Shown here: one piece after another, positions 980-53,424 of the stretch | Position numbering within the stretch: the first letter of the stretch is position 1 | Layout: each line of letters opens with the position of its first letter | Source: Candidatus Latescibacterota bacterium | GTDB taxonomy: Bacteria > Latescibacterota > UBA2968 > GCA-2709665 | DNA length: 64,000 nt | Direction of reading: 5' to 3' | Assembly: GCA_965248435.1 (NCBI GenBank) | Contig: OZ252100.1 | Span: forward strand, 3,648,001-3,712,000 | Made by a program: the position numbers and the translations under genes | Notes under the pieces: generated by a model | What the model was told of the DNA's origin: nothing | The model's database searches: none | What the model saw: only the letters and a program-made list of their open reading frames with translations

Positions 980-2077
980 ATGAGGAAATACCGCGGCGGC
1001 GTGATCGGACTGGGATGGATGGGCATGCTTGGGGACCTGGAGGGCAAGCGGGCCTGGGACCGATACGATGTGGATGACGTCGACCGCCCCACGCCAGAGC
1101 TGAATGTGCACCGCGAATTCCATTTTCACGACGGCCCGGGTGAAGCGCACGTTCCGCATACCTGGGCCGAAGCCATGTGGGACCGGCCGGAAGTGGACCT
1201 GGTGGCCGGATCTGAACGCGATCCGAAGCGGTTAAAGGCGTTCACAGAGCGCTACGGTGTCAATGCGGTCTATACGGACGCGGAAGAGATGCTGCGAAAG
1301 GAGCGGCTCGACATCGTGGCGATTGCCACGAACGTGAAGGGGCGGGCGGACCTGACCTGCCTGGCCGTGGAATGCGGGGTGAAGGGGATCGCAACCGAGA
1401 AACCGATGGCGCACACGCTCGACGAGGCCGACCGGATGGTGAAGACCTGCGCGGACGCCGGCGTACCGCTCTCCTGCGGGGCCATTCCGGTCAACCATCC
1501 CTCCTACGCAAAGGCCAAAGAGCTGATCAATGGAGGGGCCATCGGGGAGATCGTCTCGATCCAGGCCGAGGCACCCCACGCGCAGAAGCAGAACTGGTCT
1601 TACTTCGTAGACAGCGCGCCGGCCTGGGTGGTGGGCAGCGGGGAGGATCAAGCCAGGCGAGAGTCAGAGAGCAACGAGTTCGTCGGTCAGGGGATGATGG
1701 TGACGACCGACGGAGGATTCGTCTTTTTCAGAAGGGGTGCAGGTCTCCTTCGCGTAACCGGTAGCGCCGGCGAGATTGCGCTGGACCGGGGATGGCGGAT
1801 CTGGCAGGATCTGGACACGCCGATCGGAAAGCAACGCGTGGAGCTGCAGTGGCCGGGCCCGAGGTTGGCGGGCGGCTACAACGCCGTTTACGGACTGGCA
1901 GATATTATCGATTGTTTGGAAGGTCGAATGGATGAGCCGAAGAACTCCGGGAGGCGGATCGCCGTAGCGTTGGAAGTAGAGGTCGCCCTGAAGATGTCAT
2001 CGGCTCAGGGGGGCGCTCACGTGGATCTGCCCCTGAAGGACCGCAGCCACGGCCTTCAATACACCTGGTTCAGGTAG
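980..2077 (+). CDS. Gfo/Idh/MocA family oxidoreductase
   Basis: Rossmann VIGLGWMG, LDIVAIAT and ATEKPMA motifs. ATG at 980 chosen over the upstream TTG. Confidence 0.9.
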   Translation: MRKYRGGVIGLGWMGMLGDLEGKRAWDRYDVDDVDRPTPELNVHREFHFHDGPGEAHVPHTWAEAMWDRPEVDLVAGSERDPKRLKAFTERYGVNAVYTDAEEMLRKERLDIVAIATNVKGRADLTCLAVECGVKGIATEKPMAHTLDEADRMVKTCADAGVPLSCGAIPVNHPSYAKAKELINGGAIGEIVSIQAEAPHAQKQNWSYFVDSAPAWVVGSGEDQARRESESNEFVGQGMMVTTDGGFVFFRRGAGLLRVTGSAGEIALDRGWRIWQDLDTPIGKQRVELQWPGPRLAGGYNAVYGLADIIDCLEGRMDEPKNSGRRIAVALEVEVALKMSSAQGGAHVDLPLKDRSHGLQYTWFR

Positions 2078-2084
2078 GCCCGGT

Positions 2085-3794
2085 GTGAACAGCTCCACAG
2101 CGTTCAGGATCTCCAAGGAAGAGGCGCGCGCCTCCAGGGCGATGGTCGCCACGAAGCACGAACAGGCGACCCGGGCAGGGCTGGAAGTCCTGGAACTCGG
2201 CGGGAATGCGATCGACGCTGCGATCGCGGCCTGTTTCGCTACCGGTGTCGTCGAGCCGAACGCGGCGACGATCGGGGGTGGCGGGTATATCGTCTATCAG
2301 ATGGGCGATCGGTGCGGCGTCATCGGCGGGCACATGTGCGCGCCGTTGGAGGCGAGACCTGACATGTTTCGCCTGACCGGCAATCCGGGCACTGGAACGT
2401 TCGGATGGGCGGAAGTGGAAGACAACGCCAATCTAGAAGGCCATCTTTCGATCGGCACGCCAGGTGTCGTGGCCGCGATGTGCGAGGCGCATCGCCTGTT
2501 CGGCCGTGTCCGGCTGGAGGATGTGATCGCTCCAGCCGTCCGGCTTGCGCGGAACGGGTTCACGCCGCACTGGCACAACCTCTACGCCTTCGGCCTCCTT
2601 GCCGGCAACCTGTTCCAACACGAGGAACTCCGCCGGATCTTCATGCCTGGCGGAGCCATGCCGAAGGGCGACTTCTTTCATCCGGGATGCCTGCGCCAGC
2701 CGGAGCTGGCCGATGTGATGGAGGCGATCGGGCGAGAGGGTCCGGATGTCTTCTACAAGGGTGAGGTCGCGGGGAGGATCGCGGAAGATATTCAGGCGAA
2801 CGGCGGGATCCTGTCGCGGAAGGACTTCGATAGTTATACGCCGTTCGTGTGGGACGGGGGTCTTCAGGTCAGCTACCGCGGCCACACGGTGATCCTTCCT
2901 CCCCACGCGACGGCCGGCATCACGACGGCGATGACCCTGAAGTTGATGGATCGGTTCGATTTCGTGGGGATGGGTCACAACCGTGAGGAAACCCTTCACG
3001 CTTTCATCTGTTCGACGCGGCTCGCCTATGCGGACCGCTATGCGTATCTCGCGGATCCCGAGACCGTGGACGTCCCGTGGAGAGGGCTCTTGTCGGATGC
3101 CTACGCCGACAGGCGCCGGGCGCAGATCGGCGATCGCGTGCCCGATGAATGGAAGGCCGGGGACCCGTGGGTAGAGGAGGGGCGTCGTCCGGAAGTCGTG
3201 CACGAGCCGAGCGCTCCGCTGCTGAACGACGGCACGACGCACCTCTGTGCGGTGGACGGCGATGGCAACGCGGTGTCGTTCACGAACACGATCGGTTTCG
3301 GCTTCGGCTCGGGCGTGGTGCCAAAAGGCACCGGAATCGTGATGAACAACGCGATGGCCTGGTTCGACCCGGTGCCGGGGCGGATCAACTCGATTCTGCC
3401 TGGACGCTGGCCGTTGAACAACGCGACTCCGGCGATCGTTCGGACGAAGGACGGGGGGCTGATGCCGCTAGGCGCATCTGGGGGGCGCCGGATTACGAAC
3501 GCGGTCTCCCAAATGATCGCGAACATCGTCGATTTCGGTATGGGACCCCAGGCGGCGATCGACACGCCGCGGGTGGACTGTTCGACGCCGCGGACGAGCG
3601 TCCCTGAGGCGCTGGACGCGACGGTGCGTAGCGGCCTGGAGGCGCGGGGCCATCAACTGAAGGTTGTGGGGTCGGAGTACCCGGCAGGCTGGATCACGAA
3701 CTTTGCGAGCCCGACTGCGATTGTGCGGGACTCCGAGGGAAATCTTACTGCAGGTGTCGATACCTTTCACTCCGCACACGCGGAAGGTCTGTAG
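2085..3794 (+). CDS. ggt: Gamma-glutamyltransferase (Ntn hydrolase)
   Basis: GGNAIDAAIA, autoprocessing site GTTHLCAVDGDGNAVSFTNT, GIVMNNAM, GASGGRRI. GTG start. Confidence 0.93.
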   Translation: MNSSTAFRISKEEARASRAMVATKHEQATRAGLEVLELGGNAIDAAIAACFATGVVEPNAATIGGGGYIVYQMGDRCGVIGGHMCAPLEARPDMFRLTGNPGTGTFGWAEVEDNANLEGHLSIGTPGVVAAMCEAHRLFGRVRLEDVIAPAVRLARNGFTPHWHNLYAFGLLAGNLFQHEELRRIFMPGGAMPKGDFFHPGCLRQPELADVMEAIGREGPDVFYKGEVAGRIAEDIQANGGILSRKDFDSYTPFVWDGGLQVSYRGHTVILPPHATAGITTAMTLKLMDRFDFVGMGHNREETLHAFICSTRLAYADRYAYLADPETVDVPWRGLLSDAYADRRRAQIGDRVPDEWKAGDPWVEEGRRPEVVHEPSAPLLNDGTTHLCAVDGDGNAVSFTNTIGFGFGSGVVPKGTGIVMNNAMAWFDPVPGRINSILPGRWPLNNATPAIVRTKDGGLMPLGASGGRRITNAVSQMIANIVDFGMGPQAAIDTPRVDCSTPRTSVPEALDATVRSGLEARGHQLKVVGSEYPAGWITNFASPTAIVRDSEGNLTAGVDTFHSAHAEGL

Positions 3795-3857: not shown

Positions 3858-4622
3858 ATGAATACCAACAAGCGACCCTCATCCGAAGTGATCGAAGCCC
3901 TGTATGAGCTGGGGGTAGATGCCGTCACGACGACGATGGACGGACTCGGCGTGCGCCGGACGTTCATGCAGGGTCCGCAAATCCGTATCCCGGGAAGCAA
4001 GATCGTCGGTCCTGCGATCACGCTTCGCTTTGTGCCAAATCGGGAGGATAAGATAAAGGGGTTCAAGCTGCCCGGGGCGGACGGAGAGGGAATCGCCGAA
4101 GAAGAGGAGGCCGAGAAGAAGTCGGCCCTGTGGGAGATCATGTATCACGTGCAGCCGGGGGACGTCCTCGTTGCGGAACAGCGAGGGGACATCGCGACCG
4201 GTGTGGTTGGGGAGATGCTGGCGACCTATTTCAAGGCCCGCGGAGGGATCGGGATTGTGACTGACGGCTGCGTGAGGGACTCGAAGATGATCTTCGAGGA
4301 GGTAGGCCTGCCGTGCTGGACGACCAGTCTTACCACGGGCGGTGCGAGCCACATGAATCTGTTTCCTCTGGATTTCAACCTCCCGATCGGGTGCGGCAAG
4401 GTCCTTGTCGAGCCCGGAGACATCATCATGGCGGACAACGGGGGCGCGATCGTGGTGCCGCCTGTACTCCTGCCTGCGATTCTGGAGAAGGCAGGCGCAA
4501 AAGAGGAGCGGGAGATCTTCATCCGGATGAAACTGCGGGAAGGGGGAGAGATGAAGAAGTACTACCCACTGAACGAAGAAGGACAGAAGGAGTTTGAGGA
4601 GTGGCTCGCGGCTAGGAAGTGA
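3858..4622 (+). CDS. RraA/HMG (4-hydroxy-4-methyl-2-oxoglutarate) aldolase family protein
   Basis: GPAITLRF, PGDVLV, VGEML, GIVTDGCVRD, PGDIIMADNGG motifs. Confidence 0.88.
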   Translation: MNTNKRPSSEVIEALYELGVDAVTTTMDGLGVRRTFMQGPQIRIPGSKIVGPAITLRFVPNREDKIKGFKLPGADGEGIAEEEEAEKKSALWEIMYHVQPGDVLVAEQRGDIATGVVGEMLATYFKARGGIGIVTDGCVRDSKMIFEEVGLPCWTTSLTTGGASHMNLFPLDFNLPIGCGKVLVEPGDIIMADNGGAIVVPPVLLPAILEKAGAKEEREIFIRMKLREGGEMKKYYPLNEEGQKEFEEWLAARK

Positions 4623-4777: not shown

Positions 4778-5611
4778 ATGCTGAGAATCGGCTGTGCGAC
4801 GTTCAGTTTCGGGGACTTGACGCTGGAGGAATCGGCCGAAGTGGTGAAAGGCCTGGGCTTCAACCTGGTGGATGTGGGGGCGGGATGGAGCAAGTATCAG
4901 CAGGTCCATCCCGCGGAGGCGGCAGAGGACCCCCAGGAGCACGCGGATATTATCAAAAAATGGATGGAGAAGCACGGCCTTGCGATCTCCGAGCTGTTCG
5001 TGATGCAGTTCGAGGATCCGCCGAATCACCCGGACCCGGAGTCGAGGGCGCGGACCCAAAAGCGGTTCGAGGGGCTCGCGACGTTTTGCCAGAAGGCGGG
5101 GTTCGAGAGCATCATGATGCTACCGGGCGGGGTCAACGAGGGACAGACGGAAGAGGAGGCCTTCGACACGTCGGTGGCCGAGCTTCAGAAGATGGTGGCG
5201 GTGGCGCAGGAAAAGGGCATCCAATGCAACGTCGAGCCGAATGGAGGCTCTGTTGCGGGAAAGCCGGATGACGGGGCGCGGCTCTGCGAGGCTGTTCCGG
5301 GGCTGGGGCTCACGCTCGACTATCACCATCAACTGCAGCTGGGCTTTAATGTCGATCAAATCGAACCGATGCATAAGTACGCGAAACACTTCCACGCCAA
5401 GCAGTCGGCACCGGGATCGGGTATGGCGAAGGCGGATGAAGGTGCGATTGATTTCAGGCGGTTGGTCCGAACACTGAAGGCCGAAAACTACGAGGGCGTC
5501 GTCTGCGTAGAATTCGTGACACGCCAGGAATTGATCGATCAGGGCTGGGACTTCAAGGTAGAGACGGGCAGACTCAAGGAAATCCTCGAAGAGGCCCTCT
5601 ACGAGAATTAG
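4778..5611 (+). CDS. Sugar phosphate isomerase/epimerase (xylose isomerase-like TIM barrel)
   Basis: Metal-ligand pattern NVEP...TLDYHH...HFHAKQ...DEGAIDF...CVEF. GGAGG RBS. Confidence 0.88.
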   Translation: MLRIGCATFSFGDLTLEESAEVVKGLGFNLVDVGAGWSKYQQVHPAEAAEDPQEHADIIKKWMEKHGLAISELFVMQFEDPPNHPDPESRARTQKRFEGLATFCQKAGFESIMMLPGGVNEGQTEEEAFDTSVAELQKMVAVAQEKGIQCNVEPNGGSVAGKPDDGARLCEAVPGLGLTLDYHHQLQLGFNVDQIEPMHKYAKHFHAKQSAPGSGMAKADEGAIDFRRLVRTLKAENYEGVVCVEFVTRQELIDQGWDFKVETGRLKEILEEALYEN

Positions 5612-5701
5612 AGAACCTGGGTTCGAAGTTGGATTCATCCTTCACCGATCAGTGACGCGAGAGTCCTCCACTGGAGGACTCTTTGACTGTAAAGGCGATT
5701 G

Positions 5702-6847
5702 ATGGCAGAGAAGACATACGGCGTTCTGCTCGCGAGTTTCAGCAAACACAGCCATCAGAATTTCTTCATCCCATCCTATCTGGGCCACCCCAGGATTCGC
5801 ATTGTTGCGGTTACGGATGAGTCGGATGTCGAGCCGGAGCTGAAAAGCCAGAACGAGAAGCGGGCACGGGAGCTGAACATCCCCTATGTCGAAGGATTCG
5901 ATCGGGCCCTGGAGCTGGACGGCGTGGATATCGTCAGTATCGGACACGAGATCGAGCGACGTGCCGATCTGGCGATTCGTGCCGCGGCGGCTGGCAAGCA
6001 TCTCTGGATCGACAAGTATATCGGTGCGACGATCGAGGAATGCGATGAAGTAGTGAAGCGGGTAGAGGCTGCCGGTGTAAAGTCGATCATTCCCAGCTAC
6101 GTTTATGGCGAGCTCGTGGGCAGGAGCCGAGCCGTTATCGACTCTGGAGTACTCGGTGAGCTTCTGGGCGTGCATGCGGACGCCATGTTCGGCAAGAATT
6201 TGCCTCAGGAGATTGCCGAACAGGATCGGAAAACCCCCTTTCTTCCGCCGGGACGCTGGAAGTTTCCAGACATCAAGCGGGAGCTGCTCACGGTAGGCGC
6301 CTATGCCGCTGCCCTTGTGCAGGGCTGCCTCGGCCGCATTTCACACGTCTGCGGGTTCGCCGACGCCTATTTCTTTCCGGAGCACGCTGCCCACGGAGCC
6401 GACGATTTCGGGACCCTCACGATGACGGACAGCGAGGGTCGAGTCGCGACACTGTGCGGCGGACGCGTCGGAATGGCCGTACACACCTACGGAGGCCTGT
6501 CTCGGGCGTGGCTGATCGGTACGAAGGGGAGTGTGCTCGTGGATGCCAATCGCCCGGCACTGGACGTCTTCGTGCGCGAGGATATCATCAACGCAGACTA
6601 CTCGATCCCCAGCCACGATCCGATGCAGTGGCATTCTCACGCCCCTTCCATGGGGACTTCCCTGGCGGAGGATCAAGGGGGGCTGTCGAATGGTCTGGAA
6701 GATCTGGTCCAGGCCCTGGACGAGGACCGCATGCCCGGCTTTACGGTGAGGGAGGCCAGGGACCATATGGAGATCCTCATCGCCGGCTATACCGCTGTTG
6801 TCAACGGAGAGACTGTGGACCTTCCCCTGAAACGCCAGGCAAACTGA
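5702..6847 (+). CDS. Gfo/Idh/MocA family oxidoreductase, atypical subfamily
   Basis: VDIVSIG, AAAAGKHLWIDKY (DKY in place of EKP), SGVLGEL, LIGTKG. Confidence 0.82.
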   Translation: MAEKTYGVLLASFSKHSHQNFFIPSYLGHPRIRIVAVTDESDVEPELKSQNEKRARELNIPYVEGFDRALELDGVDIVSIGHEIERRADLAIRAAAAGKHLWIDKYIGATIEECDEVVKRVEAAGVKSIIPSYVYGELVGRSRAVIDSGVLGELLGVHADAMFGKNLPQEIAEQDRKTPFLPPGRWKFPDIKRELLTVGAYAAALVQGCLGRISHVCGFADAYFFPEHAAHGADDFGTLTMTDSEGRVATLCGGRVGMAVHTYGGLSRAWLIGTKGSVLVDANRPALDVFVREDIINADYSIPSHDPMQWHSHAPSMGTSLAEDQGGLSNGLEDLVQALDEDRMPGFTVREARDHMEILIAGYTAVVNGETVDLPLKRQAN

Positions 6848-7752
6848 TGTCAGACAGACGCGTGGCTCTGGTCGCAGATCCTTCTCATTTTGAAATCGTC
6901 CGGGCCATCTGTTCCCGCTTTGAAAATGTGGGCGTCTTCAATCCGACCCGCTCGCGCTTCGGCGAACTCTCTTCTCCAATATTCACAGACCTCGAATCTC
7001 TGCTCCGACAGTTCGATCCCGCCCTCTGCTGTTTCCTGAGCCCTTACACTCGCATGAAGCAAGACCTTCCCACGTGCATCGATCGGCGGGTCCACGTTCT
7101 GTCCGCCGGGCCGTTTTCCCTGAATCGAAAAGAATTCGAGTTGGTGTCCCAGGAAGCGAGAGACAATCGAATTCACGTTCAGAGCAACGGTCGGCATCTG
7201 TTCTCTCGATTGCACGACACGGTTTCAGAACGATCCGGCGGTTCTGCATTCGGGCATCCCGTTTACTTACGTCTTTTGACCGGCGGGGGAGACGGGATTC
7301 TTTCGGCCTGGTGGGCAGCGTGCGAAGCACTGGCGCAGGCAGAGTCTCTCCTGAGATCGGGGGTCACAGATCTTCGCGTCACGGCGATCAAGAAGGGCAG
7401 GAAGCATCACGTTACGCTGACGGGTCAGATGGGCGACCGCGCGCTGGCGCAGCTCGTGATCGCCCCTGTTCATATGCCGCTGGGCTGCGACATGACCCTT
7501 CTGGGTACCGGCGGGTTGCTGTTGAACGAAAGTATCCATAACGCGACAACGGTGATCAAAGAGGGGGGGGTCGAGCTCCATTCGCACGATGCGTTCTGCC
7601 CCGATCCAGACTGGTTGAGGGACTTTGTGGAGAAGATCGATCGCTCCGACCCCGAGCTTCCGGATTGGAAGACGCTTTCGTTTCAGGGCCGGGTATTGCG
7701 ATCTATTCGTCAGGCCGTGCGTGAGGGTCGACCCGTGCGCGTAAAAGTGTGA
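6847..7752 (+). CDS. Degenerate Gfo/Idh/MocA-like protein
   Basis: ATG overlaps the upstream TGA (TGATG). IFTDLESLL, RVHVLSAGPF (EKP position), FGHPVYL, LLGTGGLL and the C-terminal IRQAVREGRPV resemble the Gfo layout. Confidence 0.65.
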   Translation: MSDRRVALVADPSHFEIVRAICSRFENVGVFNPTRSRFGELSSPIFTDLESLLRQFDPALCCFLSPYTRMKQDLPTCIDRRVHVLSAGPFSLNRKEFELVSQEARDNRIHVQSNGRHLFSRLHDTVSERSGGSAFGHPVYLRLLTGGGDGILSAWWAACEALAQAESLLRSGVTDLRVTAIKKGRKHHVTLTGQMGDRALAQLVIAPVHMPLGCDMTLLGTGGLLLNESIHNATTVIKEGGVELHSHDAFCPDPDWLRDFVEKIDRSDPELPDWKTLSFQGRVLRSIRQAVREGRPVRVKV

Positions 7753-7939: not shown

Positions 7940-8938
7940 ATGAGCGAAACCGCCAACGTGGGCCAGGCTCGGGACGAAGACAGGGAGTTCTTCGAGCGCG
8001 AACTGGCCTCTTTCGTGCCGGACCGGGTGTTCGATGCCCACTGTCACGCGTATCACGAAGACAACTGCACGCTTCCGGAGATCTTCTCAGAGATTCGAAC
8101 CGTGGGGTATCCTGAATACATGAGCGTCATGGAGGACCTTCATCCAGGGAGGCACATGGGGGCCCTGCTCATCCCGTCGACGCACGAACCTGAGAGGCTG
8201 CCTCACGCCAACGAGTGGGCGGCCAAGGCCGCTTCGGCCAACCCCGATTTTCGGAGCTCGTTCTTCGTGAAGCCAGACGATGATCCGGAGTGGGTCCGGG
8301 ATGAGGTGAAGCGGCTCGGGGCCTGCGGTCTCAAGTGCTACCATACGTACTCGGACGTAGACCCGACCTGGGAAGCCCAGATTCCGGACTACCTTCCTGA
8401 GAAGTTCATCAAGGTCGCGGACGAGGAGGGATGGATGATCACGCTCCACATGGTGAGATCCCGCGCGGTGGCCGACCCCGGGAACATCAAGTGGATCCGT
8501 CACTACTGTGAAACGTATCCGAACATGATCCTGGTCCTGGCGCATTCGGCGAGGGCGTTTCAGCCTGCGCACGCCATGGAGGGGCTCCCGCAGCTGACGG
8601 GGCTGGACAACCTCTACTGTGACTCGAGCGCAAACTGCGAACAGATGGCGCATCAGGCGATCATCCGGATCCTCGGGCACGAGAAGCTGCTATACGGATC
8701 AGACTTTATGGCGAGCCACGATCGGGGGCGATCGGTCGGTGCCGCGGACACCTTCCTCTGGCTCTACAACGACACGCCCGTATGGGTCGAGAAACATCTG
8801 ACGATCAAACCGGTGCTGGTCGGGCTGGAGCACCTGCGATCCATGAAATGGGCGTGCTGGTCCGAACGTCTGAGCGACAGCGCCGTTGAAGACATCTTCT
8901 GGAATAACTCGGCAAAGCTGTTCGGCATCGATTCTTGA
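7940..8938 (+). CDS. Amidohydrolase family protein (Amidohydro_2)
   Basis: FDAHCH, GLKCYH, ITLH, VLAH, LLYGSD metal-binding motifs. Confidence 0.9.
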   Translation: MSETANVGQARDEDREFFERELASFVPDRVFDAHCHAYHEDNCTLPEIFSEIRTVGYPEYMSVMEDLHPGRHMGALLIPSTHEPERLPHANEWAAKAASANPDFRSSFFVKPDDDPEWVRDEVKRLGACGLKCYHTYSDVDPTWEAQIPDYLPEKFIKVADEEGWMITLHMVRSRAVADPGNIKWIRHYCETYPNMILVLAHSARAFQPAHAMEGLPQLTGLDNLYCDSSANCEQMAHQAIIRILGHEKLLYGSDFMASHDRGRSVGAADTFLWLYNDTPVWVEKHLTIKPVLVGLEHLRSMKWACWSERLSDSAVEDIFWNNSAKLFGIDS

Positions 8939-8965: not shown

Positions 8966-9952
8966 ATGGAAAGACCCCAGGTAGGCATCCTGGCTCGTCG
9001 GTCTCTTCGCGAGAAGATCCTGAGAGAAGAAGACCTTCAGCGCCTCAAAGGCTTCGCGGAAGTCAGTATGAATCCGGAAGATCGAGATCTCACGGAAGAG
9101 GAGGCGGCCCGGTTTCTGAGCGGGATGGACGCGGCCATGTCCTCGTGGGGAAGTTCGCGGCTGACGTCCGCGGTTCTGGAAGCGGCAACGGGGCTGAAGA
9201 TCTGGGTGCACGCCGCAGGTTCCGTGAAGACGAAGATGTGCCCGGAGGCGTGGGAGAAGGGGATTATCCTGACGAGCGCCGCGGCTGCGATCGCGGGGGA
9301 TGTAGCCGAGCTGACGATCGGGTTCATCACGATCGGGCTGAGGCGGATCATCCCCTACATGCGCGAGATGGCAGCGAACGAACCACCCGACAAAGCGGCG
9401 TCCCGTTCGCTCTACCGAAAGACCGTGGGGGTCATCTCGGCGAGCCACGTCGGCCGGCAGGTGATGGAGCTCCTGCAGCCCTACAACGTGAGGATCCTGC
9501 TGTATGATCCGTACGTGGACTCAGACCAGGCGAAGACCTTCGGGGCCGAGTTGGTGGACCTGGATACGATGGCGCGCGCGAGCGATGTGGTGAGCTGTCA
9601 CGCGCCGGCGCTGGAAGCGACCTACCACATGTTTAACGGGACCCACTTCAAGCTGATGAAGGACGATGCCATCTTCGTGAATACCTCCAGGGGGAACAAC
9701 ATCGACGAGGCGGCGCTGATCGAGGAGCTGGAGAAGGGGCGGCTGTTCGCGCTCCTGGATGTGTCGAGTCCGGAACCCGCGATGCCCGACAGCCCGCTAC
9801 GTCGGCTGCCGAACGTGGTTCTGACCCCTCACGTGGCGGGGCGGCCGTCCTTCCGCCTGGGTGAAATGGCGGTGGAGGAGCTTCGCCGCTTTTATGCGGG
9901 AGAGCCCCAGATGCATCAGGTGACGAGAGACATGTTGGACCGGATTGCGTGA
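8966..9952 (+). CDS. D-2-hydroxyacid dehydrogenase family, copy 1
   Basis: HAAGSVK, YDPY, VNTSRG (Arg), DVSSPEP (Glu), TPHVAG (His). Confidence 0.92.
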   Translation: MERPQVGILARRSLREKILREEDLQRLKGFAEVSMNPEDRDLTEEEAARFLSGMDAAMSSWGSSRLTSAVLEAATGLKIWVHAAGSVKTKMCPEAWEKGIILTSAAAAIAGDVAELTIGFITIGLRRIIPYMREMAANEPPDKAASRSLYRKTVGVISASHVGRQVMELLQPYNVRILLYDPYVDSDQAKTFGAELVDLDTMARASDVVSCHAPALEATYHMFNGTHFKLMKDDAIFVNTSRGNNIDEAALIEELEKGRLFALLDVSSPEPAMPDSPLRRLPNVVLTPHVAGRPSFRLGEMAVEELRRFYAGEPQMHQVTRDMLDRIA

Positions 9953-44522: not shown

Positions 44523-44525
44523 CTC

Positions 44526-44553
44526 GATTGTGGATTTCAGAATTCGGATTGCG
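44526..44553 (+). repeat. Heptamer tandem repeat (GATTGCG family)
   Basis: GATTGTG-GATTTCA-GAATTCG-GATTGCG. Same family at 42921-42934. Confidence 0.6.
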
Positions 44554-44588
44554 GAATCAGAAACAAACACCTATTGAAGGGAGAGCGC

Positions 44589-46151: not shown

Positions 46152-46190
46152 ACCTAACCCCCCGACCCCCTTCCCTAAAGGGAAGGGGGA
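46152..46190 (+). repeat. Hairpin repeat family A, copy 2
   Basis: ACCTAACCCCCCGACCCCCTTCCC-TAAA-GGGAAGGGGGA, immediately after the stop codon. Confidence 0.8.
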
Positions 46191-46228
46191 GCCACGTTGA
46201 CAGCAGCAGTTCGAGACAAGGCGAAAGC

Positions 46229-47779
46229 ATGACTAAGCAACCGCGCTTTTTTTACAATAACGACGGCACCTTTCTGTTCCGTAATTCTCCCCCTCTGTCT
46301 TCCGAAGATTTCGTCTACGAGGCCGTAGGGCGTCTCATAGGCACCCAAGTGGATGCCGTTGTCTGCCATATGTTCGGGTACGGCCCTGCGACCCCGCTCT
46401 ACCCGACGGAGGTTCCAGAGGCCAGAGGGATTGATTGTGAGCAGGTTGACTTTGTCAGCGTATGGCGGCAGCAAGAGATTATGAAAGGGCTGTGGGCGAA
46501 AGGGCAAGATCCCTGGAAGCAGGCTGTGGAGGCTGCCCATTCCGCAGGCATGGAATACTGGGCTGGAATGCGATTCAACGACGTGCACGGAGAGCGTTTC
46601 GGATGGCCAAACGTGTTTTCTACGAACCATCCCGAGTATGAGCTCGGGGAGCGGCGCAGCTCACCCGAAGGTCGTCTAGGTAAAACCTATGAAGGTCTAG
46701 ACTTTGCGATTCCTGAGGTACGTGCTCACCGTGTGGCGCTGGCGGAAGAGGTCTGCGTGCGCTACGACGTGGACGGTTTTGAATGGGACTTTCTTCGAGA
46801 GCCCGGCCACCACTTTTCGGACATCGAAACCGGTCGTTCCATTCTTACCGATTACGTGCGCGAGGCGAGAAACGTGCTACAGCGGGCCGGCGAAAGTCGG
46901 GGCCGGCCGCTGGGATTCGGCATCAGAGTTCCTGGGACCTTGGAAAAGTGCCATCAAATCGGCCTGGAGGTGGAAACCTGGATTCGAGAAGGGTTGGTGG
47001 ATTTTGTCTCGCCCAGCCCCTACTGGGACACGGCCACCGAACTGCCCTTCGAATCCTTCCTGGATATGGCGGAGGGCACAGACTGCCGTGTCTACGCCTG
47101 TACTTCGGAGGGGGTAGGCCCTGGAAACCATTCGCTTCCGCCAGCATCGGCCTTGCGCGCGGGCATTGCCAATGCCTGGCGTCAGGGAGTGGACGGAATC
47201 TACGTTTTCAACTTTCATCACTATGCAAGGGAAAACATCGACGAATCCACCCTGCTGCATCAACTCGGGAGTGCCACGACTTTAGAATTTCAAGACAAGC
47301 TATTCGTGATATCTGGAGGCTATAGAAGGCAGGAAATGCCGGCTTTTGACGGGTTTGAGCATCAACTGCCGCTGTTACTGAAAGAGCAGCCTGCGGGTCC
47401 GGGGAATACCTTGCGTTTTTTGGTGAGCGACGACCTGGAGACCGGTGTTGAACGGGGCATCCTGGATGCGGTCACCCTGGAGTTGATCGTCGTGGGACTG
47501 ACGCCGGAGGACGTATTCGAAACCAAGCTAAACGGAAGGGCTCTGTCAGGGACCTCAAATTTAGAGCTTCTTCCCTACAGGGTATGGCCTGGTCCGAACG
47601 CAAATCAGGGCAACTACACCCGGCGATACGACCTGCGTTCTGGCGGTTGGATTAAGCAGGGATGGAACGAAGTGGAGTTTGCGCTTCGGCACCGAAACCC
47701 GAAACTTCGGACGTGTGATTTCGTCGTCCACGACCTGAGTCTGGAGATTAGGTATCGAACACTGCCGATGAGAGGGTAA
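46229..47779 (+). CDS. GHL10-like glycoside hydrolase, copy 3
   Basis: Tandem paralog ending YRTLPMRG. Confidence 0.7.
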   Translation: MTKQPRFFYNNDGTFLFRNSPPLSSEDFVYEAVGRLIGTQVDAVVCHMFGYGPATPLYPTEVPEARGIDCEQVDFVSVWRQQEIMKGLWAKGQDPWKQAVEAAHSAGMEYWAGMRFNDVHGERFGWPNVFSTNHPEYELGERRSSPEGRLGKTYEGLDFAIPEVRAHRVALAEEVCVRYDVDGFEWDFLREPGHHFSDIETGRSILTDYVREARNVLQRAGESRGRPLGFGIRVPGTLEKCHQIGLEVETWIREGLVDFVSPSPYWDTATELPFESFLDMAEGTDCRVYACTSEGVGPGNHSLPPASALRAGIANAWRQGVDGIYVFNFHHYARENIDESTLLHQLGSATTLEFQDKLFVISGGYRRQEMPAFDGFEHQLPLLLKEQPAGPGNTLRFLVSDDLETGVERGILDAVTLELIVVGLTPEDVFETKLNGRALSGTSNLELLPYRVWPGPNANQGNYTRRYDLRSGGWIKQGWNEVEFALRHRNPKLRTCDFVVHDLSLEIRYRTLPMRG

Positions 47780-47882: not shown

Positions 47883-47931
47883 ACGAGGTCGACGAACGCG
47901 AACCGAATCATAATATCCGAGGAGGGTGCTG

Positions 47932-50637
47932 GTGGCAGGTGTATGGGTCACGCGAGGATTTGAGGAATTCAGCAAGGGCCAGTGCGGAAATGCCGGCCAA
48001 AATCTGTATGTGTCGAGGGCGGGCATCCTGCAGCGCATCCACCAGTATGACTTCAACAAAGACGGATATGTGGACCTGGTTTTCTGTAACGCACAGGACC
48101 ATCAGGAACGGATCCCGGTCTATGTCTATCAGGATCCAGTAGGAAAATGCATACGGACCGACCTGCCTTCAGACGGGGCAGCGGGTGGCGTCGTTGCGGA
48201 TTTGAACGGCGATGGGTATGACGACCTCGTGCTGGGTATGAACTATGACGGGAGTAGCACGACGGATCTGAATGCGATCATCTACTCCGGTGGTGCCGAA
48301 GGATGGAGCGAGCGCCGGCTACGAAAGATCCCGGCGCCTTTTTGCACCGCTGTAGCCGTCGGTGATTTCAACGGCGACGGTCGGCCCGACCTGGCGTTTC
48401 TCTGCCACGGGAAGGTCCGGATTTTTTATCAGACCGAGCTGGGCTTCGAGTCTGCACGTTTTTCGGACCTGGAGATCGAAGGGACACAGCTCGGAGCAGA
48501 CGACCTGGACGGGGACGGCTTTGCCGAGCTGCTCATTCGTTCCAGGGAAGGGGACGTCAAAATCTATTGGGGCGGCCGGAACGGCATAGATGTGGAGGAG
48601 ATGACAAACGTTCCAGTCGAGGCTTCGCAGGCCGCAGGGCCAGAGGAGCCACTTTCCCCTGCTTTCGAGGAAGACGCCCGGGCCGCAGACGCAAAGCCAC
48701 TGGTGAAGGTCGTCCGACTGGATGGCGTCCCCTTTCTGTTTGTGGCTCGCGAAGAGGTGACATTACTGATACCGGTCGGGAGGGACCGGACCTTTGGAGC
48801 CGCGCTGGTGCTGAAGTGCGCTCAGGCCATGTCGATCGAAATCGGTGACGTGAATGGGGACGGACATTCCGATCTGGTCGTGGCCTGCCGTGAGCCCTGG
48901 GAGGAAGGCGAATGTTCCTGGGTCTACTGGGGGAACGAGGATGGATTCAGCGACGACCGTAGGACGCGCCTGGAGAGCTTGCGCGCGTGCGACGTGGCCG
49001 TCGGGGACCTGGATGGAGATGGCTGTGAGGAGGTGGTCCTCTGTCAGAACCAGACCCGGGAATCCTTCGCGAGCGAGTCACCGATCTACCGTGGATCTGG
49101 AGACCTCACTGTGACGGAAGTGGCTCGCCTGTCCAGCGAGGACGCCAGGCGGGTCTTTATCGCCCACCCGTCCCCCGATGCGACGCCTCATCTTGTTTTC
49201 GTGAACCATTACGGAGGAGGACGAAAGGGCAAGGTGAACGTCGGCATCTTTATGGGTGGAGCGGATGGGTTTTCGCCCGAGTTTCGTCAGGAGGTGCCTG
49301 GAAGGTGCGCCGTAGAGGCAATCTGTTGTGACTTCAACGATGACGGCTGGGTGGACCTTGCATTGGCCAACTGCTCGGAGATGTCACAGGATGAGGACCC
49401 GGGGTCGTCCATCTATCTGAATGGACCCGAGGGGCCCTCGAAAACCCCGAGTTGGTCGCTTGGGACGAAACGCGCCCACGGGGGCTGTTGCGCGGACCTG
49501 GATCGGGATGGGTACCTGGACCTGGTGTTCGGCGGGTTCAACAACTCCGAGATCTCCATCTTTAGGGGTTCTGCCAACGGGTTTGAACATCCCGAGCGCA
49601 TCCGACTGGAGCACGATGGGGTCGTTTATAACCATACACTCTGGCTCTACCTGGCGGATCTGAACAACGATGGCTGGCTCGATCTGGTGGTGCCTGAATA
49701 CGGGTTCGATCGAAGCTTCATCCTCTGGGGCGGCCCGAACGGGTTCAGCATGCGGAACGCACAGTCCCTTTCTGTCCTGAACGGCTCGTGTGTGCAGGCC
49801 GCGGACCTGACCGGCAACGGCACCCTGGACCTGATCATCGGAGGACACAAGGCTCCTCCAACCGGACCGCCGACCTCCTTTCTCCACATCTACTGGAACG
49901 GTCCGGAGGGCCTGCGCGAGGATAACCGGAGCCTGCTTCCGACGCAGGGGAGCCACGGCATGGCCGTGGCCGACTTTAACAACGACGGCCTCCTGGACAT
50001 CTTCGTCAGTTCCTACGACAACGGCAGGGGAAACCGGGACATCGATTCCTATATCTACTGGAACCGGCCCGATCGCGGATTTACCGCCGCAGACCGTACC
50101 CGATTGTTCACGAATTCGGCCGCGGGGTGTCTTGCCGCAGACTTCAACGAGGACGGCTGGATCGACCTGGCCGTCGCGAATCACAAGATCTACGGGCTCC
50201 ACGAGGGAAATTCGGCGGTCTGGTGGAACGGCCCCGATGGGTTCGACGAAAAGCATCAAACCCTCCTGCCCACGATGGGTCCACACGGCATGAGCACCGT
50301 GAATCCCGGGAATGTCGTGGATCGGGGACCGGAAGAGCACTACGTATCTCGCCCGTTCCAAATCCCTACGGGATCCAGGGTGCAGGATATTTCGTGGAAG
50401 GCTGAGATCCCTTCAAAGACCTGGGTGAAGGCACAGATTCGGTGTTCGGAGTGCGAAGAAGGATTGAATGAAGCAGACTGGTTCGGTCCAAACGGCCCGG
50501 AGAGCGGGTTCGAGAATCATCAAAAAATCCATAGTGATTCGTTCGACGGGGAGTGGATTCAGTATCGGCTGGCAATGGGTGCACGCAACAGCGGGAGTAC
50601 TCCGCGTGTCTCTGAGGTTGCCGTTCGGTATTCATAG
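47932..50637 (+). CDS. FG-GAP/VCBS repeat protein, copy 1
   Basis: Many DxNxDGxxDL Ca-binding repeats. GTG at 47932 matches the paralog start and the RBS spacing. No signal peptide. Confidence 0.85.
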   Translation: MAGVWVTRGFEEFSKGQCGNAGQNLYVSRAGILQRIHQYDFNKDGYVDLVFCNAQDHQERIPVYVYQDPVGKCIRTDLPSDGAAGGVVADLNGDGYDDLVLGMNYDGSSTTDLNAIIYSGGAEGWSERRLRKIPAPFCTAVAVGDFNGDGRPDLAFLCHGKVRIFYQTELGFESARFSDLEIEGTQLGADDLDGDGFAELLIRSREGDVKIYWGGRNGIDVEEMTNVPVEASQAAGPEEPLSPAFEEDARAADAKPLVKVVRLDGVPFLFVAREEVTLLIPVGRDRTFGAALVLKCAQAMSIEIGDVNGDGHSDLVVACREPWEEGECSWVYWGNEDGFSDDRRTRLESLRACDVAVGDLDGDGCEEVVLCQNQTRESFASESPIYRGSGDLTVTEVARLSSEDARRVFIAHPSPDATPHLVFVNHYGGGRKGKVNVGIFMGGADGFSPEFRQEVPGRCAVEAICCDFNDDGWVDLALANCSEMSQDEDPGSSIYLNGPEGPSKTPSWSLGTKRAHGGCCADLDRDGYLDLVFGGFNNSEISIFRGSANGFEHPERIRLEHDGVVYNHTLWLYLADLNNDGWLDLVVPEYGFDRSFILWGGPNGFSMRNAQSLSVLNGSCVQAADLTGNGTLDLIIGGHKAPPTGPPTSFLHIYWNGPEGLREDNRSLLPTQGSHGMAVADFNNDGLLDIFVSSYDNGRGNRDIDSYIYWNRPDRGFTAADRTRLFTNSAAGCLAADFNEDGWIDLAVANHKIYGLHEGNSAVWWNGPDGFDEKHQTLLPTMGPHGMSTVNPGNVVDRGPEEHYVSRPFQIPTGSRVQDISWKAEIPSKTWVKAQIRCSECEEGLNEADWFGPNGPESGFENHQKIHSDSFDGEWIQYRLAMGARNSGSTPRVSEVAVRYS

Positions 50638-50641
50638 GCCA

Positions 50642-50670
50642 GTAGAGACGCCCCGGTGGGGCGTCTCTAC
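50642..50670. repeat. REP family C copy 4
   Basis: GTAGAGACGCCCC-GGT-GGGGCGTCTCTAC. Confidence 0.88.
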
Positions 50671-50700
50671 AATAATATTGGCTAATCAAAGGAGGCCGAT

Positions 50701-53424
50701 TTGGCAGGAGGTGTTTGGGTCACGCGAGGACATGAGGCGTTCAGCAAAGGCACGTGCGGGAACGCCGGTCAGAATCTGTATGTGTCGAAGGCCGGCGTCC
50801 TTCAGCGCATCCACCAGCTGGATTTCAATCGCGATGGGTACCTGGATCTGGTCTTTTGCAACTCGCAGGACCACCGCGAGCGGATTCCCTCCTATGTCTA
50901 CCGGGATCCGCTCGGTGAGGCCACTCGCAGCGAGCTTCCTGGCGACGGGACGATGGCGGCCGTGGTGACCGACCTCAACGAGGACGGCTTCGACGACCTT
51001 GTCCTGGGGATGGTGTATGACGGGAGCACGACGACCGACCTGAACGCGATCATCTATTACGGCGGCCCCGGAGGGTGGAGCGAGCGCAGACTGCAAAAGA
51101 TTCCTGCCCCGTTCTGTACCGCCGTCGCCGCGGGGGACTTCAACGGAAACGGCAAGCCGGACCTGGCCTTCCTCTGTCACGGCAAACTCAGGCTGTTCTA
51201 CCAGACGGAGCTCGGATTCGAACCCCGGCGGTTCGTGGAGCTGGAGATCGAAGGGCAACGACTGGATGCCGGCGACCTGGACGGAGACGGGACGGCCGAG
51301 CTGGTCGTGAGAAACAAGGAGGGGGAGGTCGACGTCTACTGGGGCGGCGAGGAGGGGATTGCGACGAATCGCGTGAGTCGGGTTCCCGTGACCTCTCTGG
51401 AGACTGAGGAGGAGGAACATGCGCCAGCGTCATTCGAGGAAGATGCCAGGGCCGCCGATGCGGGGCCGCTGATCAAGGTGATCACGTTGAATGACGCACC
51501 CCACATTTTTGTTCCAGAGGCGCGATTCGCATCGCTCGTACCGGTGCGGGAGGATCGAGGTTTCGGAGAGGCGATCGTTCTCGGGTGCGCGAGCGCGATG
51601 TCGATCGACGTTGGAGACGTGAACGGCAACGGCCAGTCCGATCTGGTCGTTGCCTGCCGCGAGCCGTTCGAAGCGGAGGAGTGTTCGTGGGTCTACTGGG
51701 GGAATGAGGACGGGTACGACGAAGATCGGCGCACGCGTCTCGCCTGTTTCCGGGCGTGCGACGTGGCGGTGGGTGACCTGGACGGAGACGGCCTGGACGA
51801 CATTGTGCTCTGCCAGAACCAGACGGTGGACGATTTCACGCGCGAGTCTTTGATTTACCGCGGGAGTCGGGACGAAAGACTGGAGGACCCGACCTCAATT
51901 CTCGCCCACGATCCCCGCCGCGTTTTCATTCCCAACGCCTCGGATGACCCGACTCCTCACGTCGTGTTCGTGAACCACTTTGCGGGCGGGCGAAACGGGG
52001 ACGTGAACGTCTATATCTACCACGGGGGACCGGACGGCTTCTCACCCGATCGGCGCCAGGAGCTCCCGGGCTGGTCGGCTGTTGAGGCGATCGGTGCAGA
52101 TCTGAATGATGACGGGTGGCCTGACCTGCTGTTGGCCAACTGTTCGGAAATGACTTCGCACAGGAGAAACATAGACCCGGGGTCTTTCGTCTACCTGAAC
52201 GGTCCCGGGGGCTTCCCCGATCGGCCGACGCAGACGCTTCCGACCGTGCGTGCGCACGGGGCGTGCTGCGCGGACCTGAATCGAGATGGTTATCTGGATG
52301 TGGTGTTCGGAGGCTTCCACAACCCCGACCTGCTGATCTATTACGGATCGGCAAACGGGTTCGATCCCAAAGCGTGTGATCGGATCCGGCTCGAGCACGA
52401 CGGCGTTGTCTACGATGAGTGCCGGTGGATCTGTCTGGCCGATCTGAACAACAACGGGTGGCTGGATCTCGTCGTGCCGCAGATCTTTCACGATCGGAGT
52501 CTTATCCTGTGGGGAGGACCCGAGGGGTTCAGCATGGAACGCGTGCAGCCTCTTTCGGTACTGAGGGCCTCGACAGTGCAGGCGGCCGATCTGACCGGGA
52601 ATGGATACCTGGACCTGGTGATCGGGAGCTTCAAGAACGAACCGACGGGACCTCCTGTCTCCTTCGTCCACATCTACTGGAACGGACCCGAGGGGATTCG
52701 TGAGTTCGATCACACGCAGCTCCAGGCGAACGCCTCCAATTGCATATCGATCGCGGACTTCAACAACGACGGCACGCTGGATATCTTTACCGGCTCCTAC
52801 GACGACGGGCGAGGAGAGCGAGACATCGATTCCTACATTTACTGGAACCGGCCCGGGAAGGGGTTCAGCCAGGCCGACCGGACACGGCTGTTCACGCACT
52901 CTGCCTGTGGCTGCCTGGCGGCTGATTTTAACGAAGATGGATGGGTGGACCTGGCGGTCGCAAATCACAAGATCTGGGGGGACCACCTCGGCCACTCTGC
53001 GGTCTGGTGGAACGGACCGGACGGGTTCGACGAAAAACGGCAAACGCTGCTGCCCACGGTCGGTCCTCACGGAATTCGGGCCGTGGATCCCGGTAACATC
53101 ATGGATCGGGGACCGGACGAGTACTACGTTTCGGAGGCATTCAAGCTTCCGGAGGGCTGTGCAGTTACGGAGGTGTCGTGGGAGGCCGAGCTGCCACCCA
53201 AAACCTGGGTGAAGGCCCAGCTGCGGTTCGCGGATTCGGAGGCAGGGTTGGCGCTTGCGGAATGGACGGGACCTGAGGTGTCGGATAGCTGGTTCGAGAA
53301 TGCGCAGAAGGTCGACGCAGCCAGGTTTCGCGGAAAATGGGTCCAGCATAGACTGGCTCTGGGTGCCGTGAACGGAGGCGGCACACCGAGGGTCTCAGAG
53401 GTCTCGATAACCTATTCCGGATGA
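50701..53424 (+). CDS. FG-GAP/VCBS repeat protein, copy 2
   Basis: Collinear paralog. TTG start after AAGGAGG. Confidence 0.85.
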   Translation: MAGGVWVTRGHEAFSKGTCGNAGQNLYVSKAGVLQRIHQLDFNRDGYLDLVFCNSQDHRERIPSYVYRDPLGEATRSELPGDGTMAAVVTDLNEDGFDDLVLGMVYDGSTTTDLNAIIYYGGPGGWSERRLQKIPAPFCTAVAAGDFNGNGKPDLAFLCHGKLRLFYQTELGFEPRRFVELEIEGQRLDAGDLDGDGTAELVVRNKEGEVDVYWGGEEGIATNRVSRVPVTSLETEEEEHAPASFEEDARAADAGPLIKVITLNDAPHIFVPEARFASLVPVREDRGFGEAIVLGCASAMSIDVGDVNGNGQSDLVVACREPFEAEECSWVYWGNEDGYDEDRRTRLACFRACDVAVGDLDGDGLDDIVLCQNQTVDDFTRESLIYRGSRDERLEDPTSILAHDPRRVFIPNASDDPTPHVVFVNHFAGGRNGDVNVYIYHGGPDGFSPDRRQELPGWSAVEAIGADLNDDGWPDLLLANCSEMTSHRRNIDPGSFVYLNGPGGFPDRPTQTLPTVRAHGACCADLNRDGYLDVVFGGFHNPDLLIYYGSANGFDPKACDRIRLEHDGVVYDECRWICLADLNNNGWLDLVVPQIFHDRSLILWGGPEGFSMERVQPLSVLRASTVQAADLTGNGYLDLVIGSFKNEPTGPPVSFVHIYWNGPEGIREFDHTQLQANASNCISIADFNNDGTLDIFTGSYDDGRGERDIDSYIYWNRPGKGFSQADRTRLFTHSACGCLAADFNEDGWVDLAVANHKIWGDHLGHSAVWWNGPDGFDEKRQTLLPTVGPHGIRAVDPGNIMDRGPDEYYVSEAFKLPEGCAVTEVSWEAELPPKTWVKAQLRFADSEAGLALAEWTGPEVSDSWFENAQKVDAARFRGKWVQHRLALGAVNGGGTPRVSEVSITYSG

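Follow-up and report, generated by a model that had tools for sequence, protein, structure and literature searches.

Among the closest described systems, the polysaccharide utilization loci (PULs) of Bacteroidota combine a SusC/SusD pair with secreted or periplasmic carbohydrate-active enzymes (CAZymes), and the canonical nan cluster comprises NanA, NanK and NanE together with a sialic-acid transporter. Here, we analyzed a 64-kb stretch of DNA (C1:3648001-3712000, hereafter the window) from the genome of a Candidatus Latescibacterota bacterium (G000; two contigs of 5.66 Mb and 17 kb), which carries a long run of 38 genes (g01–g38) on the + strand. According to our analysis, these genes may represent an "import first, dismantle inside" cluster that takes up ulosonic-acid (sialic-acid-like) glycoconjugates and breaks them down within the cell. 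We infer the function, the substrate, the direction of transport and the order of the pathway, and we give this reading about an even chance of being correct.

Some studies have described related potential in the same phyla. Sponge-associated Latescibacterota, Poribacteria and Chloroflexota show enrichment and lateral transfer of GH33 genes (PMC8163846), and GH33 and GH156 transcripts were reported from a deep-sea sponge community (PMC13200403). These phyla also hold the closest homologues of the BNR proteins considered here; the portions of the two reports available to us give CAZy counts per genome and contain nothing on a cytoplasmic location, tandem arrays, DUF6785 or an aldolase block. 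An early in silico study of Latescibacteria, in the portion likewise available, described the degradation of extracellular polymers with uptake by ATP-binding cassette (ABC), phosphotransferase and symporter systems (PMC4454575).

The 38 genes were chosen from 109 open reading frames (ORFs) of at least 150 amino acids in the window. They follow one another in unbroken succession between positions 959 and 53424, with a coding density of 94.5% and a median spacing of 63 bp, which confirms an earlier reading of this DNA (the original prediction) that more than 30 consecutive + strand genes are present. That families are multiplied, mostly in tandem, was borne out by all-against-all BLASTP for the seven BNR_2 paralogues (57–88% amino acid identity), the propellers g10–g12 (62–85%; this family is called prop5 below), the HpcH trio (69–74%), the GHL10-like g34–g36 (61–68%) and the FG-GAP and 2-hydroxyacid dehydrogenase pairs (Table 1). 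For the Gfo genes (g01, g05, g29, and g31) only their presence was borne out, as these are old, non-tandem paralogues with 27–36% identity. The predicted combination of hydrolase-like arrays, oxidoreductases and pyruvate aldolases is indeed found, as are the single transporter (g33) and the absence of any regulator family among the Pfam matches of the 38 genes. Pfam searches of the cluster and its flanks likewise gave no TonB-dependent receptor, SusD, sensor or regulator, and an Rfam search gave no matches.

A Pfam family above the curated cut-off was assigned to 28 of the 38 genes, and the GHL10 match of g34–g36 lies below the cut-off. At E ≤ 0.01, no Pfam family was obtained for seven genes (g06, g10–g12, g18, g23, and g30). 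NCBIfam returned no family for any of the ten unexplained proteins, and even a relaxed Pfam search (E ≤ 5) gave nothing for g06, g10, g18, g30 and g45, the last being a gene of the next cluster downstream.

Judging from their sequences, the GHL10-like proteins g34–g36 are GH156-type sialidase relatives. EnvSia156, an inverting exo-sialidase of family GH156 from a hot-spring metagenome, uses His134 as the acid and Arg129, Arg202 and Asn346 to grip the carboxylate of the substrate, according to the portion of the report available (PMC6811678). Its structure (PDB 6rzd) is matched by g34 and g36 with E-values of 2.7e-30 and 8.4e-26, respectively, over chain residues 105–382 (~270 residues); the E-values of the trio span 1e-26 to 1e-30, and the core, the acid His and the carboxylate-binding residues are common to the three proteins and EnvSia156. 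In the HMMER alignment to 6rzd, g36 retains Arg129, Asp132, His134, Arg202, Arg246, Trp279 and Asn346, and in the paralogue alignment His134 and Arg129/Arg202/Asn346 are all present in g34–g36. The differences are that g36 has Glu for Phe203 and Tyr for Phe278, and that the first ~100 residues fall outside the HMMER alignment. Across 28 GH156-like paralogues of the genome, Arg129 and Arg202 are found in all 28, Asn346 in 27, Arg246 in 26 and His134 in 16, g34–g36 among them; the Asp of an N-terminal "NNDG" motif is present in every one and may equal Asp14, the general base. Ten of the 12 paralogues without His134 form one ten-gene tandem array elsewhere in the genome (C1:4150639-4166000, − strand), in which His134 is replaced by Gln (Lys in one copy) and Asp132 by Met with the Arg/Arg/Asn triad intact; by these residues, the array may be a subfamily with a different chemistry.

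The seven BNR proteins carry PF13088 (76–88 bits) and PF02012 repeats, and their alignment contains five Asp-boxes of the S-x-D-x-G-x-x-W-like type. With GH33 sialidases such as NanI of Clostridium perfringens (PDB 2bf6/2vk5) they have in common the BNR_2 domain, the Asp-boxes, a putative catalytic Glu and one putative triad Arg, whereas they lack a signal peptide and a carbohydrate-binding module, and the match to GH33 sialidases is local only (~80–100 residues, E 1e-7 to 1e-11; 6e-11 for a profile of the seven). The segment "NEPSV...FLRS," which is invariant in the seven paralogues and in 30 diverse homologues, aligns with "TECQV...FMRN" of NanI, which places its Glu on the catalytic Glu and its Arg on the second arginine of the triad. 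An invariant Tyr ("YPS") is present as well, with no aligned counterpart in a known sialidase. Since sialidases bind the C1 carboxylate through residues that are retained in both the GH156-like and the BNR proteins, ulosonic acids would be the favored targets. The retained carboxylate-binding residues of the GH156 type thereby lend support to the sugar-acid substrate class named in the original prediction.

The prop5 proteins appear, from a structure model, to be a nameless family with a GH130/GH43-like fold. The model of g10 (42 sequences, pLDDT 89.9) shows a five-bladed propeller followed by a C-terminal beta-sandwich, and its best matches are GH130 mannoside phosphorylases (VIA Z 26.3 for 9fj8 and 26.1 for 7fip; rmsd 2.7–3.2 Å over 277–283 residues), a group of cytoplasmic enzymes. 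The next-best folds are GalNAc deacetylase, BT_0996, GH159, GH43, GH62 and GH32, with Z of 21–24 for GH43, GH62 and GH32. The differences from the GH130, GH43, GH32 and GH62 propellers are an identity of 13–16%, the extra beta-sandwich and the lack of a Pfam match. Sequence searches with g10 gave no Pfam family at E ≤ 5 (Glyco_hydro_130/DUF377 included), no NCBIfam family and no PDB match at E ≤ 1. Relatives are numerous, with 9409 cluster representatives at E ≤ 1e-3, of which 4129 remain at 1e-10 and 767 at 1e-30. Ten representatives were sampled, partly for their length, and BNR_2 was found in the same chain in two of them, an alginate lyase domain in one and a weak GH32 match in one. The two natural BNR_2-prop5 fusions are P0503, which also contains Laminin_G_3, and P0430; P0423 is the prop5 relative with the alginate lyase domain.

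In a PDB search, the HpcH trio matched 2-keto-3-deoxy sugar-acid aldolases with E-values of 1e-27 to 1e-18. PF03328 scored 54–65 bits, and an alignment with 4tv5 matches the substrate Arg and two acidic metal ligands to the "VAR," "LEHV" and "KDL/RDI" positions. The D-x-E-H motif is replaced by DCCH in g25, SCCH in g26 and H-CFG in g27 (no His at that position), and all three variants are retained in the respective orthologues of a congener, G001. The claim that catalytic positions differ among the paralogues therefore stands for this motif and possibly for the acid/base loop of the BNR proteins; it does not stand for the GH156-like trio or for prop5, in which alignment showed the family-invariant residues to be unchanged among the cluster copies. 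Among the oxidoreductases, g31 resembles, at the sequence level, sugar C2/C3 oxidoreductases, its PDB matches including aldose-aldose oxidoreductase, inositol dehydrogenases, DgpA and sugar 3-ketoreductase. No dehydratase of the MR/MLE or IlvD type was found among the Pfam matches of the 38 genes, and this, together with four pyruvate-type aldolases, fits substrates that are already 2-keto-3-deoxy acids.

The sole transporter of the cluster, g33, has at least nine hydrophobic segments. With its model (pLDDT 88.1), Foldseek returned at E ≤ 0.001 only barley HvYS1 (7wst and 7wsr; E 2.6e-8 and 3.1e-7, TM 0.64 and 0.70), every other match having E ≥ 0.03. Over the whole chain, the modeled fold of g33 is like that of HvYS1, a transporter of the OPT/Yellow-Stripe group, whereas the sequence identity is just 10–11%. 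The Pfam OPT family (PF03169) did not match g33 even at E ≤ 5, and 11% of the members of an Atlas cluster related to g33 carry the OPT family. The transporters of canonical nan clusters differ from this predicted OPT fold in being sodium solute symporters (SSS), tripartite ATP-independent periplasmic (TRAP) transporters or ABC systems.

The DUF6785 family, to which g33 belongs, had at least 19 matches in each of the 31 genomes of the order that were searched, with a ceiling on the count near 34, and none in 14 control genomes; our literature search yielded no mention of it. In G000, a member of one of six GH-like families lies no more than five ORFs away from ten of the 24 DUF6785 genes (seven of 15 loci), against a random-ORF expectation of 2.4 ± 1.5 (maximum 8 in 2000 draws). 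Six DUF6785 genes lie almost head to tail at C1:3992990-4005456, and three or four more, one apparently split, at C1:3611357-3617421. As a tentative extension, which we consider possible although rather doubtful, DUF6785/DUF6784 could be an unrecognized OPT/Yellow-Stripe branch that imports glycoconjugates. Combined with cytoplasmic GH33-like, GH156-like and GH130-fold arrays, it would constitute a third architecture of glycan-utilization loci, neither SusC/D nor ABC, used across the Latescibacterota order and partly in Poribacteria and Dehalococcoidia for ulosonic-acid-capped glycans through an aldolase route that needs no NanE.

None of the 37 non-membrane proteins of the cluster has a hydrophobic N-terminus. 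A simple heuristic of our own, which tolerates wrong starts and is distinct from SignalP, flagged no member of the families genome-wide (prop5 0/38, BNR 0/14, GH156-like 0/29, g45-family 0/11), compared with signal-like N-termini in 14% of all ORFs. Given this lack of signal-like N-termini, the cluster enzymes are most likely cytoplasmic, in agreement with the intracellular location proposed originally. The cluster shares with Bacteroidota PULs a co-localized transporter, several glycosidase-like genes and downstream sugar catabolism, whereas it has no SusC/SusD pair, its enzymes have no export signals and its breadth is due to massive tandem paralogy, not to a large number of CAZy families; the proposed contrast with secreted PUL-type systems thus holds.

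Based on these features, the following scheme can be proposed. The predicted secondary transporter g33, presumably proton-coupled and of the OPT/Yellow-Stripe fold, would import small glycoconjugates or oligosaccharides. In the cytoplasm, these may be trimmed from their ends by the seven BNR proteins, the three GH156-like proteins, the four prop5 proteins (as hydrolases or phosphorylases), the GH42-like barrel and the two FG-GAP propellers, with 2-keto-3-deoxy "ulosonic" acids (sialic-acid-like, KDN- or Kdo-like) bearing varied decorations as the putative targets. The freed keto-deoxy acids would be cleaved to pyruvate and an aldose by the three class II HpcH aldolases and the one class I aldolase of the DHDPS family. 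The aldoses and substituents might then be handled by the Gfo proteins, the 2-hydroxyacid dehydrogenases, Amidohydro_2, the TIM-barrel isomerase, TauD, the gamma-glutamyltranspeptidase (GGT)-type amidase and RraA; it is speculation on our part that TauD, GGT and Amidohydro_2 remove substituents. The paralogues would correspond to different specificities for linkage or decoration.

The arrangement is conserved in the congener G001, a genome of the same genus on one 4.08-Mb contig, in which 33 of the 38 genes are collinear with 66–94% amino acid identity and only g11, g14, g16, g19 and g20 are missing. A search of 31 genomes with the BNR protein g16 revealed the complete arrangement in no genome other than G001. 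Contigs from two runs of one sample covered all 30 bins of positions 11001–31000 at even depth, and the long pieces listed were free of differences. A run from another study (X5) covered 28 of the 30 bins at ~1% divergence; the uncovered part, 19005–21005, takes in most of g16 as well as the 3′ end of g15. Strains may differ in copy number here, or the contigs may have a gap. Pieces of 38–261 bp with 95–99% identity covered 17 of the 30 bins in one (X6) of several runs with small shares that are labeled marine or seawater, from which we draw no claim on habitat. Collinearity in the congener and the even contig cover indicate that the arrays are not assembly chimeras.

The evolution of the arrays was assessed with Nei-Gojobori dN/dS on 41 usable pairs. 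All 41 values lie between 0.06 and 0.26, which indicates purifying selection, and there are no internal stops. No positive selection was detected in 25-codon windows over ten BNR genes, where pN/pS reached at most 0.47 (peaks of 0.33–0.47, in the N-terminal third), so that positive selection on the loops, for which the original prediction had suggested a check, found no support. The even pS (0.33–0.6 per window in these ten genes) gave no sign of gene conversion. Orthologues of G000 and G001 differ by dS of 0.30–0.82, the close paralogue pairs g10/g11, g13/g14, g15/g16 and g19/g20 by 0.57–0.61, and older pairs are at or near saturation. The dN of the copies without a G001 orthologue is roughly twice that of their sisters.

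In a BNR tree of 95 rows (quick IQ-TREE with SH-aLRT supports), the BNR genes of the genus fall into two clades, A (g13 and g14) and B (g15, g16, and g19–g21). Both lie inside a clade (support 98) with ten Chloroflexota sequences, and B is sister to seven of these (94); three other Latescibacterota BNR sequences are placed elsewhere. This topology agrees with the lateral GH33 transfer described in the available portion of PMC8163846, in either direction. The pairs of G000/G001 orthologues exclude g14, g16 and g19+g20 (SH-aLRT 89–98), which dates the duplications to the species split or earlier; the 4.1-Mb congener has probably lost copies. We had considered recent G000-specific duplications for the five extra genes; given the tree placement and dS values equal to or above those of orthologues, loss from the smaller G001 genome is no less likely.

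The cluster does not stand apart from its surroundings. By blastp labels on a crude ORF set, the genome contains 39 Gfo, 38 prop5, 29 GH156-like, 24 DUF6785, 17 2-hydroxyacid dehydrogenase, 16 HpcH, 14 BNR and 11 g45-family genes; the Pfam counts are 24 for DUF6785 and 31 for BNR_2. The interval 3.54–4.02 Mb, which is 8.5% of the genome, holds 19 of the 24 DUF6785, 22 of the 38 prop5, nine of the 11 g45-family, 12 of the 29 GH156-like and nine of the 14 BNR genes. With a crude pick of ORFs by length and GC3, which split the cluster's own run, 86–89% of ORFs in 3.6–4.0 Mb are on the + strand, and the same pick gave other + strand runs of 40 and 64 ORFs. The GC content of the cluster (0.601) is modestly above the genome mean of 0.566 (standard deviation of 100-kb bins 0.023). 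Taken together, the family enrichment and the strand bias suggest that the cluster is one slice of a ~480-kb, + strand, paralogue-rich catabolic region, and the discrete island of the original prediction is not supported.

Relatives of the close BNR subfamily (52–65% identity) were found at 79 loci in metagenome-assembled genomes of Chloroflexota/Dehalococcoidia, Poribacteria, Latescibacterota, Gemmatimonadota and Acidobacteria. At L042, a locus of another Latescibacterota genus, DUF6785, HpcH, BNR and GH156-like genes occur inside 9 kb, and at three Dehalococcoidia loci two to four tandem BNR genes adjoin one to three prop5 genes.

Several results weigh against reading the 38 genes as a pathway for ulosonic-acid glycoconjugates. 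Across the BNR family, conservation does not extend to the Arg at the RIP spacing. The paralogues vary most in the very loop that contains the Asp matched to the acid/base of NanI, and the first GH33 Arg, the Tyr and the acid/base Asp have no confident mapping. The Asp taken as a candidate for Asp14 in the GH156-like proteins lies outside the HMMER alignment to 6rzd, its equivalence coming from a MAFFT column among the paralogues only. In PDB, g28 matched DHDPS and L-KDA dehydratase best and showed no specific likeness to NanA. No match to NanE (PF04131) was found in G000, a genome 97.5% complete, while seven of the 14 control genomes had matches; thus, of the canonical nan cluster, NanE has no counterpart in this genome and the DHDPS/NanA-superfamily is represented by g28. 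A GlcNAc-2-epimerase-like protein gave a single weak match elsewhere in the genome, and together with the missing NanE this argues against the textbook Neu5Ac route and for another route. The known substrates of the OPT family are peptides and metal chelates, and its members are not known to carry sugars. Within ±10 kb of the 79 BNR loci, Gfo occurs at 14, 2-hydroxyacid dehydrogenase at 11, prop5 at eight, DUF6785 at four and HpcH at three, and most neighbors are unrelated. Also, no shared BNR context in other phyla emerged from 120 neighbor ORFs at 30 of the 79 loci, the most frequent families being FakA-like (8), Gfo (7), PhyH (7), DegV (6) and ThuA (5). Five spacers of at least 140 bp leave room for several transcription units, so that a single pathway or transcription unit, as originally proposed, is not supported, and the regional strand bias means that co-direction alone says little.

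The last points lead to the alternative that independent small operons have been concatenated by chance, head to tail, along the leading strand where paralogues abound. This is unlikely but by no means negligible, given the concentration of the same families in 3.54–4.02 Mb, the other long + strand runs, the spacers, a full layout confined to the congener and BNR neighbors that vary across phyla. Such an origin would be harder to reconcile with the preserved order of 33 of the 38 genes over a species split at dS of ~0.3–0.8, with sub-modules that recur (L042, and BNR with prop5 in Dehalococcoidia), with the BNR_2-prop5 fusions and with one chemical theme. A further proposal, that peptides or glycopeptides enter through an OPT-type oligopeptide importer, are deglycosylated and then pass to peptidases, seems improbable to us. 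The OPT/Yellow-Stripe-like fold of g33, the occurrence of PF03169 in 11% of the related Atlas cluster, the GGT g02 inside the cluster and the M81, M19 and hydantoinase/oxoprolinase A/B genes flanking it would all suit it; yet g02 is the single amidase-type gene of the 38, the Pfam OPT profile misses g33 and the enzymes are mostly those of sugars and sugar acids. The glycopeptide variant overlaps with the import of ulosonic-acid glycoconjugates rather than replacing it.

Two other explanations carry little weight. The propellers (BNR, FG-GAP, and prop5) could be binding or host-interaction proteins or decaying duplicates, since the FG-GAP proteins resemble integrin repeats only and the BNR proteins show faster evolution of the loops in their N-terminal third (pN/pS as high as 0.47); the lack of export signals, the purifying selection on all copies, the invariant residues of catalytic type and the metabolic surroundings make this very unlikely. 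That the tandem arrays are an assembly artefact has an almost negligible probability. Arrays with 57–88% identity can mislead assemblers, but the genome consists of two contigs, the paralogues are at least 12% apart in protein, pS is 0.33–0.6 per window, depth is even in 30 of 30 bins and the congener is collinear, a synteny result that speaks against the chimeras which the original prediction had listed as a risk.

Table 1. Genes of the 38-gene run on the + strand, with positions in the 64-kb window (identities between paralogues from BLASTP).
Gene(s)	Assignment	Position	Strand	Basis and remarks
g01	Gfo/Idh/MocA oxidoreductase	959..2077	+	PF01408, 52 bits; G001 orthologue 89%
g02	Gamma-glutamyltranspeptidase-family Ntn hydrolase, without signal peptide	2085..3794	+	PF01019, E 5.5e-122
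g03	RraA-like aldolase/decarboxylase	3858..4622	+	PF03737, E 1.7e-26
g04	Xylose-isomerase-like TIM barrel	4778..5611	+	PF01261, E 1.2e-27
g05	Gfo/Idh/MocA oxidoreductase	5699..6847	+	PF01408 and PF22725
g06	No known family	6847..7752	+	No Pfam or NCBIfam match; G001 orthologue 66%
g07	Amidohydro_2, lactonase/decarboxylase-type amidohydrolase	7940..8938	+	PF04909
g08, g09	Tandem D-2-hydroxyacid dehydrogenases	8966..10959	+	PF02826; 74% identity; 1:1 orthologues in G001
g10–g12	Tandem prop5 (five-bladed beta-propeller and beta-sandwich)	11040..15879	+	No Pfam; GH130/GH43-like fold (model)
g13–g16	Four tandem BNR_2 (predicted GH33-like six-bladed propeller)	15956..21485	+	PF13088; g13 likely start 16019
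g17	GH42-like TIM barrel and DUF4350-like domain	21522..23510	+	PF02449, 32.7 bits
g18	Family unassigned, 651 aa	23542..25497	+	Adjoins g17 also in G001
g19–g21	Three further tandem BNR_2	25469..29525	+	Pfam; g19 likely start 25556
g22	TauD/TfdA-family Fe(II)/2-oxoglutarate dioxygenase	29537..30478	+	PF02668, E 3.8e-37
g23	Fourth prop5 paralogue	30460..31977	+	39–40% identity to g10–g12
g24	DUF6807	32017..32964	+	PF14100, E 1.5e-32
g25–g27	Tandem HpcH/HpaI class II aldolases	33031..35341	+	PF03328; motifs in text
g28	DHDPS/NanA-superfamily class I aldolase or dehydratase	35445..36401	+	PF00701
g29	Gfo/Idh/MocA oxidoreductase	36436..37431	+	Pfam
g30	Family unassigned, 241 aa	37934..38659	+	Four distant paralogues in genome
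g31	Gfo/Idh/MocA oxidoreductase	38678..39769	+	Pfam
g32	DUF6807	39785..40726	+	Pfam; 57% identity to g24
g33	DUF6785 and DUF6784 membrane protein, OPT/Yellow-Stripe-like fold (model)	40931..42916	+	Pfam, E 1.1e-112
g34–g36	Tandem GH156-like (beta/alpha)8 sialidase relatives	42828..47779	+	PDB 6rzd (E-values in text); g34 likely start 42954
g37, g38	Tandem ~900-aa FG-GAP/VCBS repeat proteins	47926..53424	+	PF13517 and PF01839; 66% identical; no signal peptide

The remaining genes of the run are listed in Table 1. The ORF of g06 is open from 6454, and its first ~131 codons overlap g05 and have a non-coding look; translation probably begins with the ATG at 6847. For g17, there is a second copy with 90% identity at C1:3027130-3029115, ~640 kb away, where its neighbor g18 has no second tblastn match. 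g18 itself gave no match in Pfam, NCBIfam or PDB sequence searches, and the best Atlas score of 0.83 was uninformative. DUF6807 is presumably the entry formerly named "PmoA" in Pfam, and the papers found mention DUF6807/PF14100 in passing, as a number or as a "methane oxygenase-like" neighbor of a metagenomic beta-galactosidase, and give no function. In a PDB search, g37 showed similarity to integrin repeats only. The largest spacer of the cluster (37432–37933, 502 bp) has no Rfam match and no convincing ORF, and it is not conserved in G001. A promoter and terminator scan of 34001–54000 gave 7 and 21 sites, respectively, against 5.7 ± 2.4 and 15.1 ± 3.8 in shuffled sequence, an uninformative result; the consensus may not suit the phylum.

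The flanks (1–831 on the − strand, and 53436–62060) encode an M81 peptidase, an M19 dipeptidase, a second Amidohydro_2 protein and hydantoinase/oxoprolinase A and B, and these genes for peptide and amide catabolism are collinear in G001. An ISL3-family transposase at 56788–58002 (− strand) has ten genome copies with 99.75–100% amino acid identity, six of them within 3.54–4.02 Mb, an interval to whose rearrangement recent transposition may contribute. The next cluster begins at window position 62236 (C1:3710236-3722908) with four tandem g45-family genes followed by DUF6785. The protein g45 has more than 588 aa and no Pfam family, its copies are 84–87% identical and part of it is distantly similar to prop5; it opens the 40-ORF + strand run.

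In conclusion, our results confirm the gene layout of the original prediction and partly support its interpretation, now sharpened with putative sialidase-type chemistry, a predicted OPT-fold importer and an unnamed family of the GH130 fold; the cluster belongs to an already known kind, that of glycan or sugar-acid utilization. Candidates for assay at this locus are the three GH156 relatives, the seven GH33-like proteins and the nameless propellers, whose family counts ~9400 cluster representatives. Its HpcH aldolases, moreover, form a natural series in which the catalytic motif has changed. If the proposed reading is true, some abundant uncultured marine lineages would break down sialic-acid-like glycans intracellularly by means of an uncharacterized transporter family, and CAZy "sialidase" counts in such genomes may not signal extracellular attack on host glycans.

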